A stretch of 64,000 nucleotides of DNA from Podarcis pityusensis (taxonomy: Eukaryota), in the NCBI GenBank assembly GCA_964106645.2, contig OZ067045.1; one strand, given 5' to 3'. Position 1 is the stretch's first letter. Each line of letters begins with the position of its first letter. This document shows, piece by piece, positions 40,575-51,806 of the stretch. The notes below the pieces were generated by a model, which worked only from the letters and a program-made list of their open reading frames with translations, did not search any database and was not told the DNA's origin. The translations under genes were made by a program, and so were the position numbers.

Positions 40575-41233
40575 TGTATATATATTTTTATTAAGTTTTC
40601 TGTTTTACAATTTAAGATACTCATTTTACATCCTTAAGATATCAGTGACTTCCCTTCTTCTCTTTCCATGATTCATTTCACCTACCATAAATCCCTGCAT
40701 ATTTTACAAAAACTGTACCATCCAGTATTCCATTGTTGCATCCATCAAAACTTATTTACACTGTTGAATTTATCTTAATGCTGCCAGCGTTTTCAGCTGT
40801 ACACAATTATTTCCCATATATTCAATAAATCTTTCCAATCTTCTTTAAACATGTGTTCTTGTTCTCTTATTCTAAGTGTTAAGTCTGCGAGTTGTGCATA
40901 TTCTGTCAACTTAAGTTGCCATTCTTCTTCAGTTGGGACCTCGCTTGTTTTCCATTTTGAGGCTAACAAAACATGGGCGGCAGTGATAGCATACATAAAT
41001 AACCTTTTTTTGACACTTGGGAATTTCAGTCTGAATTATCCCCAACAGAAAGGACGGGGGGTTTTGGGGGGGGAAGTACTTTAAAACATTTTTTCCAATT
41101 CATTATGGATCATTTTCCAATACTCTTTTACCCTTTTGCAAGTCCACCACATATGAAAGAACGTTCCCGCCACCTCTTTGCATCTCCAGCACTTATCTGA
41201 TTCAGTCCTATACATCGTAGCAAGCATATTTCT
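40575..41233 (-). mobile_element. 5'-truncated L1-clade LINE (ORF2 C-terminus + 3' UTR)
   Basis: The minus strand encodes DKCWRCKEVAGTFFHMWWTCKRVKEYW (L1 ORF2 C-terminal zinc knuckle) and ...LASKWK...PTEEEW. Perfect 17-bp TSD tcatttaattattctct at 40558-40574 and 41234-41250. Confidence 0.9.
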
Positions 41234-41728: not shown

Positions 41729-42163
41729 TGTAGTGGTTCTAGGGGTTGCTCGTGCGTAAGCCGGTGCAAACACCTGGCTGGGTTGCCTGAGTGAACCTTT
41801 CCTGTCCGGACAGCCACTCACCCGTGGTTGTCTCAGTCGCTGGCAGAATCCGTCAGTGGGCGTTTCTTAAACTTCTTCCAGCAAAGAAGTTCTTTGACGC
41901 CTAGTCTCCTCCTACTCTCTCTGCGCGAAAGCCTTCTGCGCAAGGAGGGCGTAGGCAGCGGAGGACCTCTACTCTCCCCGCTAGTCCCCGGCAAGGAGTC
42001 ATGGGACCGCCTCGCTGCTTCCCCCATCTGCCCCCCTTCTCCACTGGTGCTACGCTGATTCTCTTCCCCAGAAGATGGGCTGCCTCTCCCAATCCCGGGA
42101 CGCTCTCTGGAATACCTCTGGATTTTGCTCTCTCCCTCCGGCACTGATGGCAGTTCCCTGACA
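41729..42163 (-). repeat. 3' LTR (435 bp) of the Gypsy element
   Basis: On the minus strand it starts TGTCAGGG immediately after the PPT and ends ...CCACTACA (TGT...ACA termini). Both ends match the two remnants of the 5' LTR. Confidence 0.93.
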
Positions 42164-42177
42164 TCCACCTCCTCCTC
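41833..42177 (-). CDS. Open reading frame across PPT and U3 of the 3' LTR (~114 codons); probable original C-terminus of Pol
   Basis: Part of ORF 41833..42291. It is +1 relative to the pol frame, and removing one G from the G6 run at 42182-42187 fuses it to pol (…RGGGGGPEEEVDVRE…). It ends in a Pro then Arg-rich block (PPLPTPSLRRRLSRRESRRR). Confidence 0.55.
   Translation of the reverse strand, partial: EEEVDVRELPSVPEGESKIQRYSRERPGIGRGSPSSGEENQRSTSGEGGQMGEAARRSHDSLPGTSGESRGPPLPTPSLRRRLSRRESRRRLGVKELLCWKKFKKRPLTDSASD
42164..42177 (-). promoter_or_regulatory. Polypurine tract GAGGAGGAGGTGGA
   Basis: 13/14 purines, immediately 5' of the TG that starts the 3' LTR. Confidence 0.85.
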
Positions 42178-45100
42178 AGGACCCCCCACCCCCACCCCTG
42201 GCACGATTTTCCGGTACAACCTCCTCTCTCTCCTCGGTCGACGATGCGGGGAATCCCCTGAAGGAACTGTCATCATCTTCTGAGGATTCAAAACCAGCCA
42301 CCCATCCGCTCAGATTTCTTCCCGCTGGTTGAACCTCCCAGTCTGATCCTTCTCCCTCGGACACCTCCCCTCCCTCCTCTTCGGAGGCAGGAAAACCCAC
42401 AAAGTCCCCTTCGTCATCTGTGGGTCCAAATTCTTCCTCCCAGAATCTAGCTAATGGTTTGGGCTTATCCGGGAACAAACCGTGGAATTCTTCCACCAGA
42501 TACCCGTCAGTGATTGATTCAGCAGGGACCCAAGTGTTTTCAGACCTAGGTTCCCCCTCCCAGGCTACCAAGTACTCTACCTGGCGACCTCGCCACCTTG
42601 AATCGAGTATTTCCGTGGCTTTGTTACAGTGTTCCCTCTCCTCTACCTGTGGGTGGGTGGTAACCCCTCCCTCCCGTCCCGGGAATTCCCGCCCCTCCCT
42701 GTAAGGTGAAAGTAGGGACCTATGGAACACCGGATGTATCTTCATGCTGTCAGGCAACTTGAGTTTAAATGCCACGGGGTTAACCTGCTGTATTACCTCA
42801 AAAGGCCCCAGCCGCCTAGGCTGCAACTTCTTGCACCCTCACTTTAGGGGCAACCCTTGGGATGACAACCACACCCGGTCTCCCACCCGTATGGCCTCCC
42901 CCTCCCGACGGTGCCTGTCCGCCTGCCTCTTGTAAACTTCCTTGGCCCGCTCCAAGTTCAGCCTGAGTTGCTGGTGTAAGGCCTCCATTTCTTCCACCAA
43001 TTGCTCAGCCGCAGGTACACTCCATCCTTCCTCCCCCCGCCCCGAGAAGGCCCTGGGGTGACACCCGTAATTGGCCATGAAAGGGCTCATTCCCGTGGAC
43101 ACGTGTTCTGCGTTATTGTACGCAAATTCAGCCAAAGCTAATTTCTCTACCCAATCGTTCTGTCTCTCGCTGACATAGCAGCGTAGGTACTGCTGGAGTA
43201 TACTGTTCGCTCTTTCGGCTTGTCTGTTGGTTTCTGGGTGCCTCGCCGTCGATAAGCTCACCTCGACCTGTAGCAAGCTCATGAGTCTCCGACAGAACCG
43301 GGAAGTAAATTGTTTCCCACGATCCGAGATTACCCTCAATGGAGCCCCATGCAGTCTAAAAATGTGATCCACAAACAGCCTGGCTGTCTCCTCTGCCGTT
43401 GCTGCATGTGAGCAAGCTACAAAATGGCACATTTTAGTCAGTAGATCGACCACTACCATGACCGCTGTCTTTCCCCTTGACTTGGGCAGATCTGTCATAA
43501 AATCAATGGACACCACCTCCCAGGGCCTTTCTGGTGTAGGTAAGGGTTCCAGTAGCCCCGCGGGGGCAGCCCTTTCCCCCTTTGCCCTCTGGCATCGGTC
43601 GCACCCTCGTACATATTCTCGTACGTCTTCCCTCACCTTTGGCCACCAGAACTGCCTGGTGACAAGTAGCAAGGTCTTGTGCTGTCCAAAGTGACCAGCT
43701 GTTGGGTTGTCATGGAGTTGTCTAAGTACCTTCCCCCTCAAAGTCTCCCCTGGTACATACAGCGCCCCCTTATAGTACAGTAGCCCTTCCTTTTCCTCAA
43801 ACCCTCCATTGACTTCCTTTCTATCCCTGAGTTCCCTGATTTTTGTCTGAGCAAACTCATTGTCTCTGGTGAGCCCTGCCAGTTCTCATTTCCCAACCAA
43901 CGCTCCCACACACACACACCAGTCCTCGGGGAACACGTGCCTGGTCTATGGTGGCCCCTCTCCTTCCATGTACTCCGGTTTCTGGGAGAGAGCATATGCC
44001 CTTACATTTTCCTCTCCCGGCACGTAACGGATCTCAAAGAAAAACTTGGCGAACTCCTGGGACCATCTGATCTGTCTCTGGTTGAGCACTCGCGCGGTCC
44101 GCCAGTATTCCAAGTTCTTGTGGTCAGTTTGGACCTGGATCTTGTGCCGCGCCCCTATTAATAGATGTCTCCATTGCCGAAATGCTGCATAGATCGCAAG
44201 CAGTTCTCGGTCATACACCGTGTAGTTTTGCTCCGACTTGCTCAGCTTCCTAGAGAAAAAGGCACACGGCCTCCAGTTCTGCTTGGCACCGGGCTGCAAA
44301 AGGACCGCTCCAATCGCGCGGTCGGACGCGTCCGTCTCCAGTCTCATGGGTTTCTCCGGATCCATGTGCAGGAGCTGCTCTTCCGAGGCGAACGCCTTCT
44401 TCAGTTTTTCAAAGGATTGCTGCGCATCCTCTGTCCACACTAACTTCTTTTTGCTACTAGGACAATCCGTTATGGGCGCTGTCAAGTGAGTGAAGTTCTT
44501 TATGGACTTCCTGTAGAAGTTGCTGAAGCCTAGGAACCTCTGCACATCCTTTCTGTTTTTGGGGGCTTTCCATTCCAGCACTGCCTTCACTTTGCCCAGG
44601 TCCATGGCTAGTCCTTTGTCTGACAACCTGTACCCCAGGAACTCGACCTCCCTGGCGTGGAATTGGCATTTTTCCAGCTTGACCCACAACTGATGATTCT
44701 TCAATCTCTGTAGCACCTCCCTGACGTCTCTGACGTGTTGCTTTTCATTGTCCAAATAGATTAAGACGTCATCCAAAAAGGCTACGCAATTCTTGTACAG
44801 CAGGGGCCCCAACACATGGTGCATGAAGGCTTGAAAGCAGGCGGACCCCCGATTGTAATCCAAATGGCATGACTAAGTACTCAAAAGCCCCCAGGGGGGT
44901 GAACATGGTCATTTTCCATTCGTCCCCCTTCCTTATCCTAATCAGATTGTATGCTCCCCTGAGGTCCAGCTTGGTAAAAACCTTCCCCTGCCTCACACGT
45001 GTCAAAATATCGTCAATCCTGGGCATTGGGAAAGTCACGGGTTCTGACACCAGGTTTAGGGCCCGGTAATCCACGACTAATCTGGGCTGATTTGTCTCTT

Positions 45101-45715
45101 TTTTGTCCACAAAGAACACTGGACTGCCTCCCTCTCGCTGAAGACCTCCTTCAAATCAGCATATTGTGTTGGCACCTCCCTTTTTTGCTCCAGGGCCACC
45201 CCAGCCACCCTGGCCACAGTCCTTCTTGGTTCCTTCCCTCCCAGACAGTGTTCTAAGCAGTAAGCTGACCCAAAGGTGACCGACCCCTGATGCCATGACA
45301 CCACTGGGTCATGTATTGCCAGCCAGCTCATTCCCAGTATTATCGGGGGTCCTGCCAGCGTGGCCACGTGAAAGGCAATGGTTTCCGTGTGCCTGGAGAC
45401 ACTCATTCGCATTGGCGGTGTCTGGTGTGTCACTTCCCCTCCCAGGAGTTCCCTGCCATCGATGGTGGTCACCTGCAAGGGAAAATCTCGTGGCAACAGG
45501 TGGAGCTAGTGCTCCAGAGCGAAGTCTCTGCTGAAGAAATTACACGAGCTGCCAGAATCTAGCAGCCCCTCCACTTTGACAGGGTGCCCATTTGGGAGTT
45601 CTAGCACCACCTCTATGGCTATAGCTGCCTTGGGAGGGTCAGGCTGGGGCACTTCTATTGGTTGCTGGCCTGGCTGCTGCCCCTGCTGGTTGGCAGCCAG
45701 GCGTTGTCGTTTCCC
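42176..45715 (-). pseudogene. pol: Pol polyprotein (protease, RT, RNase H, integrase, GPY/F, chromodomain, acidic tail), inactivated
   Basis: PR LLDSG (DSG 45551-45559). [30 protein letters not shown]. RNase H TDAS/DRELLAI/TDHKNL. IN HHCC (LHDNPTAGH...CDRC) and D,D,E (SIDF, SDRG, AERAN). GPF module and chromodomain at about 42470-42625. Lesions: stops at 45506-45508, 43946-43948, 43886-43888 and 42839-42841, a deletion with frameshift near 45125, and a frameshift near 44855. Confidence 0.95.
45646..45715 (-). other. Programmed -1 ribosomal frameshift signal (G GGA AAC + H-type pseudoknot)
   Basis: Heptamer GGGAAAC at 45715-45709 in the correct gag phase, then a 6-nt spacer. Stem 1 is a perfect 10 bp (45702-45693 with 45677-45668). 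Loop GGGGCA (45683-45678) can pair with downstream UGCCCC (45651-45646). The -1 frame is open into the protease. Confidence 0.9.
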
Positions 45716-46671
45716 TGCACCGGCTCTTCCTCCCCCTTATCGTCGTGGCCTGCAGCCTCCATCATGCCTTGCCAGGCTTTTCGTTGAGGGCAGACCTTTG
45801 CAAAATGTCCCGGTCGCTGACAGAGGAAACACTTCTTGGTAGTTTTCCACTCCTTTTTCCGACCTTCACCAGCGTTTGAAACTTCGCACACACACGCTCC
45901 ATCAATTTCCATCGGCTCCGCCGCCTGGGAAGGCTCCCTCGGCATCTCCGGAATGTGGTTGTCATGGAAACGTTCCGCCCTTATCTCCCGCTTCTCCTGA
46001 GCCCACACTTCCTGGCGTACACCGATCGCAAGCACAGTCTTTGTGAGTTCATCCATCGACCGCGGGCGGGGCGCTCGGGACAACTCGTCTTTCACTTCGG
46101 GGGCCAAACCCGCTTCAAACAACATTTGTACTGGTTCAGAGTCCAGATCCCACCCGAGCTTGTGGACTAACATCACAAAACACGACCAGTAGTTTCTGAC
46201 GGACAGGCTCCCCTGCTTGCACCCCATCAGCTCCCTCCGTGTCACGCTTTGCTCAATCTCGCTGGAGAACATCGCGTCCATTCCCTGGTAGAATTTCTTA
46301 AGATCTTTCAAAGCGTCATTCCCCGTTGCCATCAAGGGCCTGATCCATTCGCGCGCCCCATCCTGCAGATGTCCAACAATGTAAGCCACCCTCTCCCCGT
46401 CATCAGCAAAGTCATTTTTCTGCAATTCCAAAGCGTACTGAATTTCCGTTCGGAAGGCATTGTAGTCTTGGGGCTCTCCACCAAACTTGTGTACCAGCCC
46501 CGGGACCTTCCTCCCTATCGGGGTGGCTCTGACCTGTGCATCCTGAGCCCGTCTCTCCTCCATCCGCGCAGACAGGGTAGCGACATGCGCCTCCAGGTCT
46601 CGGTTCCTCTCGACCAGACCTCGCACCATGGCTTCTTGCTCTGTCTCTCCGACCGGCCCTGTTTGGCTCAT
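45655..46671 (-). CDS. gag: Gag of the Gypsy element (338 aa, uninterrupted)
   Basis: ATG start. N-terminal coiled-coil-like segment, Sushi/PEG10-type capsid motifs (KFGGEPQDYNAF...VAYIVGHLQDGAREW, KQGSLSVRNYW) and CCHC zinc knuckle CFLCQRPGHFAKVC. Confidence 0.95.
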   Translation of the reverse strand: MSQTGPVGETEQEAMVRGLVERNRDLEAHVATLSARMEERRAQDAQVRATPIGRKVPGLVHKFGGEPQDYNAFRTEIQYALELQKNDFADDGERVAYIVGHLQDGAREWIRPLMATGNDALKDLKKFYQGMDAMFSSEIEQSVTRRELMGCKQGSLSVRNYWSCFVMLVHKLGWDLDSEPVQMLFEAGLAPEVKDELSRAPRPRSMDELTKTVLAIGVRQEVWAQEKREIRAERFHDNHIPEMPREPSQAAEPMEIDGACVCEVSNAGEGRKKEWKTTKKCFLCQRPGHFAKVCPQRKAWQGMMEAAGHDDKGEEEPVQGNDNAWLPTSRGSSQASNQ

Positions 46672-46711
46672 CGTGCTGCCTCTCCGGTGCTGCGCACAAG
46701 CAACGTCAGGG

Positions 46712-46722
46712 ACTGACGGATT
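46712..46722 (-). promoter_or_regulatory. Self-priming primer binding site (AATCCGTCAGT)
   Basis: Starts 2 nt after the LTR end, lacks the TGG of tRNA PBSs, and is exactly complementary to 11 nt inside the LTR (ACTGACGGATT, 41857-41847). Confidence 0.85.
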
Positions 46723-46724
46723 GC

Positions 46725-47077
46725 TGTAGTGGTTCTATGGGTTGCTCGTGCGTAAGCCGGTGCAAACACCTGGCTGGGTTTCTTTTTCTTTTTTCCATGT
46801 GCTTGTTAGGCAAAGACTAAATCTCTTTTTTTAAAAAATAATATTTATTACTTTCCAACAAAATAAACATACATAGAAAAAGAAAATAAACAATACAATA
46901 CAAAAACAATACCTAACACTAAACTAACAAAAACAATTTAAACTAAGAAAACAAAACAAAAACGATTTAAACTAAGAAAACAAAACAGAAACAATTTAAA
47001 ACACATCAGATAAATTCAATCTTTCATTCACTTATTTCCATGACCTCCTCACACCTCCCTTTTTGTATTCCCTGACA
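46725..47077 (-). repeat. Disrupted 5' LTR: only the first ~10 bp (47068-47077) and last 56 bp (46725-46780) remain
   Basis: Direct comparison with the 3' LTR; the interior is replaced by unrelated AT-rich sequence. Confidence 0.9.
46781..47067 (-). mobile_element. LINE (probably L1-clade) 3'-UTR fragment plus ~40 nt of extra sequence replacing the interior of the 5' LTR
   Basis: The minus strand is T-rich, with AATAAA followed by an A-tract (~46824-46849), then a short unique stretch and a second A-rich tract next to the LTR remnant. Composition resembles the L1 3' UTR at 40575-40790. Confidence 0.6.
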
Positions 47078-49524: not shown

Positions 49525-49867
49525 TTGTTGTTGTTGTTGTTTAGTCGTTTAGTCATGTCCGACTCTTCGTGACCCCATGGACCAGAGCACACCAGGCACT
49601 CCTGTCTTCCACTGCCTCCCGCAGTTTGGTCAGACTCATGCTTGTAGCTTCGAGAACACTGTCCAACCATCTCGTCCTCTGTCGTCCCCTTCTTCTTCTG
49701 CCCTCAATCTTTCCCAACATCAGGGTCTTTTCCAGGGAGTCTTCTCTTCTCATGAGGTGGCCAAAGTATTGGAGCCTCAGCTTCACAATCTGTCCTTCCA
49801 GTGAGCACTCAGGGCTGATTTCCTTCAGAATGGATAGGTTTGATCTTCTTGCAGTCCATGGGAATCT
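49525..49867 (-). mobile_element. 5'-truncated Bov-B (RTE-clade) LINE 3' end
   Basis: ORF 49553..49870 reads PWTARRSNLSILKEISPECSLEGQIVKLRLQYFGHLMRREDSLEKTLMLGKIEGRRRRGRQRTRWLD, the typical Bov-B C-terminus. (CAA)n tail; flanking duplication caatgct at 49518-49524 and 49868-49874. Confidence 0.93.
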
Positions 49868-51806
49868 CAATGCTACATAGCCAAATTAGACGGGCCCTGT
49901 AGCATTGCAGTGCATCTCTCAAATGACACGACCCCTGGTTCATTGGGAGAGAACAGAAGGGCAGCAAAGAAGCAACAGAGGAGAAGGTGGTGGGGAGAAT
50001 CTGCAGTCAAAATAACAGGAAAATATGTACATGGGGGCCCTGTGTACCTTCAAAAAACCCATTCCCTCCCATATTTTGTATTTCCCCACTCCCATTGGTG
50101 CAGCCCTAGTTTATTTGGTTACTTCAAACACTATGCGGCAAAGTATCCTATGGGGGCAGACATATTTTTTTCTGTGCAAATAAATTTTCCTTGTAAAAAT
50201 GAATTCTCATCAGCCCCAGCCAGCATGACCGTAGTGCCTGGGACTAATGGGAGTCGCAGTCCAAACATCTGGAGGGTGTGGAAGGCTGTTCCACTTCCAA
50301 AACCAGGATTTTGCTATGTGGCCTTTATTCCCACTGCTGCCCATTCTCCTGGAAGCTTGTGATCAATACAGCACATAGAGAGGGGATAACATCACCCATG
50401 CGAATAATCCAATTGATTCAATGAGGCAACTAATCATATGACTTCTATTTACTTACGTACTTGGCTGTTTGCAAAGGTAACCTTTCGGATATGAAGTCTG
50501 ACAATCTTTTCAAGATTACTATCCAAATTAAGCATCTAAAGACACCTGGGTGAAAATGCCGCAGGCCAGGTCAAGGGAGGGGGGAACCCCACATACACCC
50601 CAGTTAACTGTGTGATTGCTTAAAGGAGGAGGAATCCCTCTGGATCTCTCCTCCTCCTCCTCCTCTTCTTCTTCTAATGGCACAAGACCAGTCATGAGCA
50701 GATGCATTGTAAGAGGCACTCCCAAGCATATTTCATAGCACTTTTCATTGTTGAAAGTGCACTTTTCCCATAGCACCCTGCAATATAAGTAAGAGATGGG
50801 AGCACTTCTGGGGCTGATCAATTTTCTGCCCCTTCAGATTTGAATACCTTATTTTATATTGCATCTGTAGTCCATTTTACAACTTGAGATGATTTATCCT
50901 TCTGCAAAGTGTTGCAAATTTCCCCATGAAACAGACAGGCAGAAAAGTCAATGCAACACAGGTCTGAACAGCACTACAAGCTGTTCCCTATTTTCAGCTG
51001 AAGGTAGGTAAGCCAGGAGGCTGAGTGTTGGCTGTTGGAGATGCCACAAAGCACATGACTGGGCTTCTAATGCTTGTGCAGTCAGCTCAGGCCTGTCCAT
51101 TCCAGAGGCTTCATACTGCCTACCAAACATTGTCCATTGGTGGATACATTCCAAGCATTTAGATTTTCATGGGTGGGGGACTTAGACCAGACCACTGAAA
51201 TCGCCAAGGAAGAAGAGAAAGGGGGACATTAATCTGCATATCTGTGTGTCCTGAATTCGTCATTTTCGAGTGGCCCTGTTTCCTACTTCACAGAGATTGC
51301 TCTTCTCAGTCCAAGTCCTGTTGAAACACAGATGGAGCCCAGAGAGAAATGAACTGGTGATAACACATGGCTGAGGAAAACTGAACAAAAACTGTGTATT
51401 TGAAAGCAGTTTTGTGTTTCTTACTTCAAGCCTTGTATATTGCAGGGAGACATTCAATCAAAGGTACAGAGGAAAAACTCCCACAGCTTTGCACAGCCAA
51501 TCAGAGTGTGTGCCAACTTAGCAAACATCATGCCACTCTACTTAGATGCTAAGCAACACCTTCACCTGGCACCCTCTTGGCTAGTTGTATTGACCACTAG
51601 CAAAATTAACTTAAGCTGCTAACTGAATGATCCCTGCTGTTTCACTTCCAACATGAATTCAGGATGAGATGACAATAATATCTAAATTTGCATCTACAAA
51701 CATAAATTAGCACATGCAAATTTATGCAAATCTGCATTCCCCTTTGTCCTCTTTTTTGGTGATGTGTTTCTGATTGTTTAGCCAATGTGTAAGTGGTCAC
51801 TTCCAA

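Follow-up and report, generated by a model that had tools for sequence, protein, structure and literature searches.

The nef gene of HIV and the sag gene of MMTV overlap the polypurine tract (PPT) and the U3 part of the long terminal repeat (LTR), each as a separate gene. In the plant retrotransposons of CRM group A, and in the beet elements Beetle and Bingo, Pol itself passes the PPT into the 3' LTR, which codes for the integrase's C-terminal end, according to the accessible excerpts of two reports (PMC3059260, PMC3605345). [quoted passage not shown] The lizard retrotransposon family described here shares with the V-clade this type of PBS, the vertebrate host, a CCHC gag and the PR-RT-RH-IN-chromodomain order, and adds, downstream of the chromodomain, a tail of about 200 amino acids encoded across the PPT and U3, a feature unmentioned for the V-clade in the available parts of those reports. 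As in CRM group A, its Pol frame extends into the 3' LTR. Unlike CRM, in which a CR motif replaces the chromodomain, priming is by tRNA-Met and the host is a plant, the lizard family keeps its chromodomain, carries a self-type PBS and inhabits a vertebrate, and its frame appears to end inside R. It differs from nef and sag in that its U3 frame is the end of Pol, without a start codon of its own.

The window, a 64,000-nucleotide stretch of Podarcis pityusensis DNA, contains a minus-strand Ty3/gypsy element at 41729-46780, with matches to gag, RT, RNase H, integrase, an SH3-like domain and a chromodomain; all features of the element given below lie on the minus strand. From its 5' end, it comprises a 5' LTR remnant of 56 bp (46725-46780), a PBS (46712-46722), gag with capsid and CCHC knuckle (45655-46734), a protease/RT/RNase H region (43946-45832), an integrase with zinc finger, core and SH3-like domain (42698-43885), a chromodomain (42482-42613; Pfam PF00385, E 2e-10, and alignment to PDB structures), a PPT recognized from the sequence and from other copies (42164-42177), and a 435-bp 3' LTR with TGT...ACA ends (41729-42163). 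The RT-RNase H-integrase order, C-terminal chromodomain, LTRs, PPT and 5-bp target duplications are those of chromoviruses, and the PBS complementary to a stretch within the LTR is that of Tf1/sushi elements. This copy has decayed: its protease/RT/RNase H region contains stops, a frame switch and a deletion compared with other copies, one stop interrupts the integrase, and the 5' LTR is reduced to its remnant. Going by domain order and self-priming, we assign the element as a decayed Tf1/sushi-type chromovirus copy of a lacertid lizard. An exon of the host's LEDGF gene, 100% identical to Podarcis muralis entries and 99% to Lacerta agilis, places the host among the lacertids.

With a 5' LTR of only 56 bp, the full LTR length is unreadable from the window alone; it was fixed by LTR pairs elsewhere, with their TG..CA ends and 5-bp target duplications, and by loose contig ends at 42163, a position that the PPT directly precedes. 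One paired match indicating a longer LTR was rejected as a single rearranged copy, the remaining pairs beginning at 42163. The 5' LTR remnant abuts A/T-rich sequence (46781-46860), and no target duplication is readable for the window copy. The PBS lies within a short inverted repeat (46700-46724) with the potential to fold into a hairpin or into a portion of a Tf1-type pretzel. Elsewhere in the window, minus-strand open frames at 49553-49885 and 40793-41035 resemble LINE fragments (BovB-like and L1-like).

In the window copy, pol ends at the stop codon 42178-42176; from 42177 the next frame continues open through 114 codons until a stop at 41835-41833, covering 331 bp of the 435-bp LTR, just as an earlier note on this DNA had described; counted stop-to-stop, the frame is open for 158 codons. 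Measured from 42460, the extension after the chromodomain amounts to about 208 codons, in agreement with the figure of roughly 200 amino acids proposed in that note. In 3000 dinucleotide shuffles, comparable openness arose by chance at a rate of 1.9% for the given frame and 5.5% for any of the three. Openness alone is thus only modestly beyond chance, and the case for read-through rests on comparative evidence. The LTR frame has no Pfam match. Among the copies compared it also lacks a conserved Met, and is therefore the end of Pol rather than a separate gene. Its 114 codons (41833-42177) make up the C-terminus of the family Pol/integrase, with the PPT coding in the same frame; in the window copy they are out of frame with pol, and the break maps to a length-labile G tract (42182-42199) delimited by the clustering of indels.

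A genome search with the 3' end of the element returned 2970 candidates, the best 40 of which were scored, and a set of 41 close copies was assembled from the window and 40 fetched copies (36 of the 39 non-self scored rows plus four from a second search). Nine of the best 40 matches lie on contig C19, which makes up 2.5% of the assembly and is possibly a W-like or low-recombination chromosome. The chromodomain is in frame with the LTR frame in 19 of the 41 close copies, the largest class; it leads into the third frame in 16, and six are arranged as in the window, leaving 22 out of frame at the G tract. Reading is unbroken to the stop in 12 of the 41, twice by way of compensating indels. The LTR frame itself is kept open in 31, and the third frame is also open, as far as 41903, in several. 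The 41 copies carry 65 indels, 47 of which fall within 42171-42211, the region of the G tract. The frame classes are dispersed across the copy tree, which has low support, and variants in tract length are also present in short-read contigs of related organisms; the G tract is therefore a slippage hotspot of the window subfamily, and slippage in this tract, which is peculiar to the subfamily, is how the window copy lost its frame. A regular (GGT GGG)n glycine linker had been proposed for this site; the glycine richness stands, but a fixed repeat does not, given the variation in tract length among copies. Three copies, L071, L092 and L098, cluster in the tree and share both the third-frame class and a 5' end at 44987; this group is possibly a non-autonomous derivative or a duplication.

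Older subfamilies have a shorter Gly/Glu linker without the long G tract, and the junction is in frame in 23 of 30 copies at 71-95% identity (near-duplicates included). The fused form, from integrase to a tail with the same C-terminus, was also found in the proteins P0003 (Logan), P0129 and P0130 (UniRef), so that fused Pol proteins are already present, unremarked, in automatic annotation. P0003 has 90 scored matches in the genome, all of them with integrase and tail joined in a single frame, in a search that selects for such matches. A deeper, young family shows a frame of 1374 codons in roughly 55 of its 150 scored matches, as counted by eye, and ten of ten elements fetched from deeper families have a frame that continues across the PPT and terminates 100-102 codons into the LTR. 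The deeper-family elements L234-L243 have 408-bp LTRs with LTR pairs 97-100% identical, which suggests that they were active recently. The position of the stop is shared by 22 of 22 copies, and changes in U3 length between families preserve the frame. Read-through of the PPT into the LTR, the central claim of the earlier note, is thus found in natural copies that reach the same stop without any reconstruction, and in fused database proteins. In word-based protein searches, the tail turned up in Podarcis entries and a single Logan protein only; P0004 was considered as a further homologue and rejected as a repeat-driven chance match.

The PBS occupies bases +3 to +13 after the 5' LTR and is complementary to positions 307-317 of the LTR (window 41857-41847), a match reached in 1 of 2000 shuffles. 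The 11-nt pairing is present in 17 of the 24 close copies that have both a 5' LTR and a PBS, and primer and PBS covary in four variants across subfamilies; the duplex checked is the central one of the three-duplex pretzel of the Tf1 type. A reading in which the PBS region matches the first bases of the LTR fits less well than the 11-nt stretch at position 307 with its covariation. The position of the self-primer would place the U3/R border at 41857. On this basis U3 would comprise 306 nt (41858-42163), lying wholly within the reading frame, and the frame would stop 22 nt into R; the primer (41847-41857), putatively the start of R, codes within Pro-Leu-Thr-Asp-Ser. The frame very probably covers all of U3, and the coverage of the whole U3 asserted from the window alone is supported by inference from the primer position. 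The distance from the primer start to the beginning of the stop is 22 nt, both in the window family and in the deeper families with their 408-bp LTRs.

Promoter and polyadenylation signals were also searched for. No TATA box was found; a TTTAAG lies 14 nt before the primer and is missing there in deeper families. Neither AATAAA nor ATTAAA occurs in the three LTRs checked (that of the window and those of the deeper-family elements L235 and L237), whereas the Sushi LTR model has AATAAA in the accessible part of its source (PMC3601003). Raw RNA reads from a related organism were of low depth, did not pile up at any start site and left 42196-42237 uncovered. Two bulk RNA runs of a related organism contain 6 and 9 reads in which the LTR is joined at 41851 to one unrelated sequence; they may derive from a host transcript with splicing into a copy of the LTR.

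The structure of a natural tail was predicted by AlphaFold2 from a 13-row alignment, which gave a confident chromodomain, a helix at LARFWEEEF, then disorder, and a short helix at VKELLCWK, with a mean pLDDT of 53.6; the tail is thus predicted to be mostly disordered. In the alignment to PDB structures, the chromodomain keeps the cage Trp and has Glu in place of the third HP1 aromatic. Except for the first, the cage positions follow the available part of PMC3605345. The VKELLCWK helix falls in a conserved basic block at the end of the frame (41836-41970), with a net charge of +11 in 45 aa. The part of the tail before the PPT is acidic (net -18 in 77 aa) and contains two motifs, each consisting of a hydrophobic anchor, 8-9 acidic residues with Ser/Thr, and FxGF: motif 1 at 42392-42445 and motif 2 at 42251-42304. 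In a set of 23 of the 30 loci, from which near-duplicates were dropped, none of the 23 copies departs from the F, G and F of motif 2, and those of motif 1 are kept in 22-23 of 23. Two or more FxGF occurred in 0.14% of 200,000 shuffles, the fuller pattern having been drawn post hoc.

These motifs resemble the TND-interacting motifs (TIMs) that bind LEDGF and HRP2. According to the available text of PMC9987994, the FxGF is important for LEDGF and HRP2 uniquely, the linker is phosphorylated by CK2, and TIMs commonly occur in tandem; the FxGF motif also appears in the accessible part of 10.1101/624023. With TIMs and IBD-binding motifs as presented in those texts (MLL1, JPO2, IWS1, JIL-1), the lizard motifs share the anchor, an acidic linker with Ser/Thr of 8 and 9 aa (within the 8-16 aa of TIM linkers), the FxGF, the tandem arrangement and the disordered context. 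TIMs have been described in cellular proteins, whereas the lizard integrase carries putative ones. A search of the PDB with the acidic tail returned a single match, judged to be due to chance, and the ESM Atlas gave only chromodomain leads, all under 0.9. Modelling the motif-1 peptide in complex with the lizard's LEDGF IBD gave a score of 0.25, against a mark of 0.34, from a tool unproven on peptides. TIM-like binding to a TND/IBD is offered as a prediction with a somewhat less than even chance of being correct. The motifs may instead have a different partner, whether another TND protein (TFIIS, IWS1, elongin A) or something unrelated, or they may prolong the fold of the chromodomain, an outcome we regard as possible though not probable. 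In the low-confidence model, the anchor helix is predicted for motif 1 but not for motif 2. In favor of such alternatives, the motif-1 helix directly follows the chromodomain helix, motif 1 in deeper families reads L/M-x-G-F with the first Phe lost, and many TIMs bind other TNDs without FxGF, in the accessible text of PMC9987994; on the other hand, motif 2 retains its full FxGF across families, the same source ties FxGF uniquely to LEDGF and HRP2, and the genome contains both a LEDGF gene and an HRP2-like gene.

To quantify constraint, dN/dS was computed between nine near and nine distant copies, with bootstrap over codons. The value was 0.11 for the chromodomain, 0.15 (0.07-0.27) for the acidic tail before the PPT and 0.51 (0.33-0.76) for the LTR frame, against 1.08 and 0.87 for the other sense frames; without its last 19 codons, the LTR frame gave 0.57 (0.34-0.90). 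A separate set of 27 mostly solo LTRs gave 0.53 versus 0.85 and 1.05, and 0.59 for the antisense frame with shared third positions. Decay after insertion shifts these dN/dS values toward 1. The 5' half of U3 is loosest, with a dN/dS of 0.57, an interval reaching 1.06, and 0.61 for a second frame. In comparison with deeper families, the LTR frame has a pN of 0.25-0.34 and a pS of 0.47-0.78, synonymous sites being near saturation. A codon-position test across subfamilies, as the earlier note had suggested, found synonymous bias only in the fused frame, and this bias is weak within the window subfamily, where shared variants number 15/15/21 by codon position. Taken as a comparison of sequences, these values indicate purifying selection on the LTR frame at the protein level. 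The most constrained part of the extension is the acidic FxGF region before the PPT, which the earlier note had missed. We consider it almost certain that the read-through is real and selected.

The U3-encoded part could be a tolerated passenger, with only the acidic region before the PPT mattering and U3 open by descent. This is consistent with an LTR dN/dS well above that of the acidic tail and with the first 64 codons of the LTR frame, which are only 38-46% identical to deeper families, but we judge it unlikely: the last 45 codons keep 65-79% amino acid identity to these families while pS reaches 0.45-0.87, the stop is fixed among copies and in its distance from the primer, and the length changes of U3 keep the frame. 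A separate small gene of the nef or sag kind, or an optional extension through frameshifting at the G tract, would accommodate the three frame classes coexisting in the subfamily and the open third frame, and is highly improbable in the face of the missing start codon, the scatter of the classes over the copy tree, and the older and deeper families, which are in frame without any long tract. Conservation at the DNA or RNA level (promoter, primer structure) that mimics coding is largely refuted, for although the primer and nearby bases must be RNA-constrained and openness has a chance rate of 2-6%, the third-position bias is specific to one sense frame and persists without the last 19 codons, and even around the primer pS is 0.45-0.84 versus a pN of 0.11-0.17 in comparison with deeper families.

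We thus favor a model in which pol runs past the chromodomain, through the PPT and about 330 bp into the LTR, giving a selected tail of about 200 amino acids that is probably a host-docking module. In this model, the genomic RNA would start at the primer and end beyond the stop in R, the mature integrase would keep the tail of about 208 aa, and U3 would serve as promoter and coding sequence at once. The acidic FxGF motifs are predicted to dock on LEDGF/HRP2-type domains and so tether integration to transcribed chromatin, and the basic block to act in nuclear import (as an NLS) or in nucleosome or DNA binding. A bolder version, which we put forward tentatively and would not expect to hold in full, is that the whole of U3 was made coding and that the tail mimics FxGF/TIM sequences to hijack LEDGF/HRP2 by a linear motif, replacing a weakened chromodomain. 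Lentiviral integrases reach the same IBD by a folded surface, not a linear motif.

In the literature searched, within the text available for each source, no U3 read-through was found in a vertebrate chromovirus and no FxGF in a retrotransposon integrase; a Repbase or GyDB entry or an older Tf1/sushi description may exist. Entry of Pol into the LTR is already known in plant CRM, and what appears to be new is its occurrence in a vertebrate chromovirus that keeps its chromodomain and primes itself. Two Podarcis muralis gene models (P0001, P0002; homologues of 41836-42165) include in-frame peptides of the LTR frame: the basic block forms the end of a phospholipid-transporting ATPase, and the 5' half the start of a Gla-domain protein. 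These peptides reflect either exonisation or an annotation artefact. Because thousands of LTR copies carry an open frame of 100-110 codons, they can lend coding exons to host gene models.

For the family itself, the finding means that one sequence would be used three times, as promoter, self-primer and protein, in a high-copy vertebrate retrotransposon in which this can be measured across subfamilies. To our knowledge, integration-site choice of vertebrate chromoviruses has been little studied, and the tail offers two short motifs that lend themselves to direct tests. Should the FxGF motifs indeed bind LEDGF/HRP2, these elements would have converged on the integration cofactor of HIV by motif mimicry.
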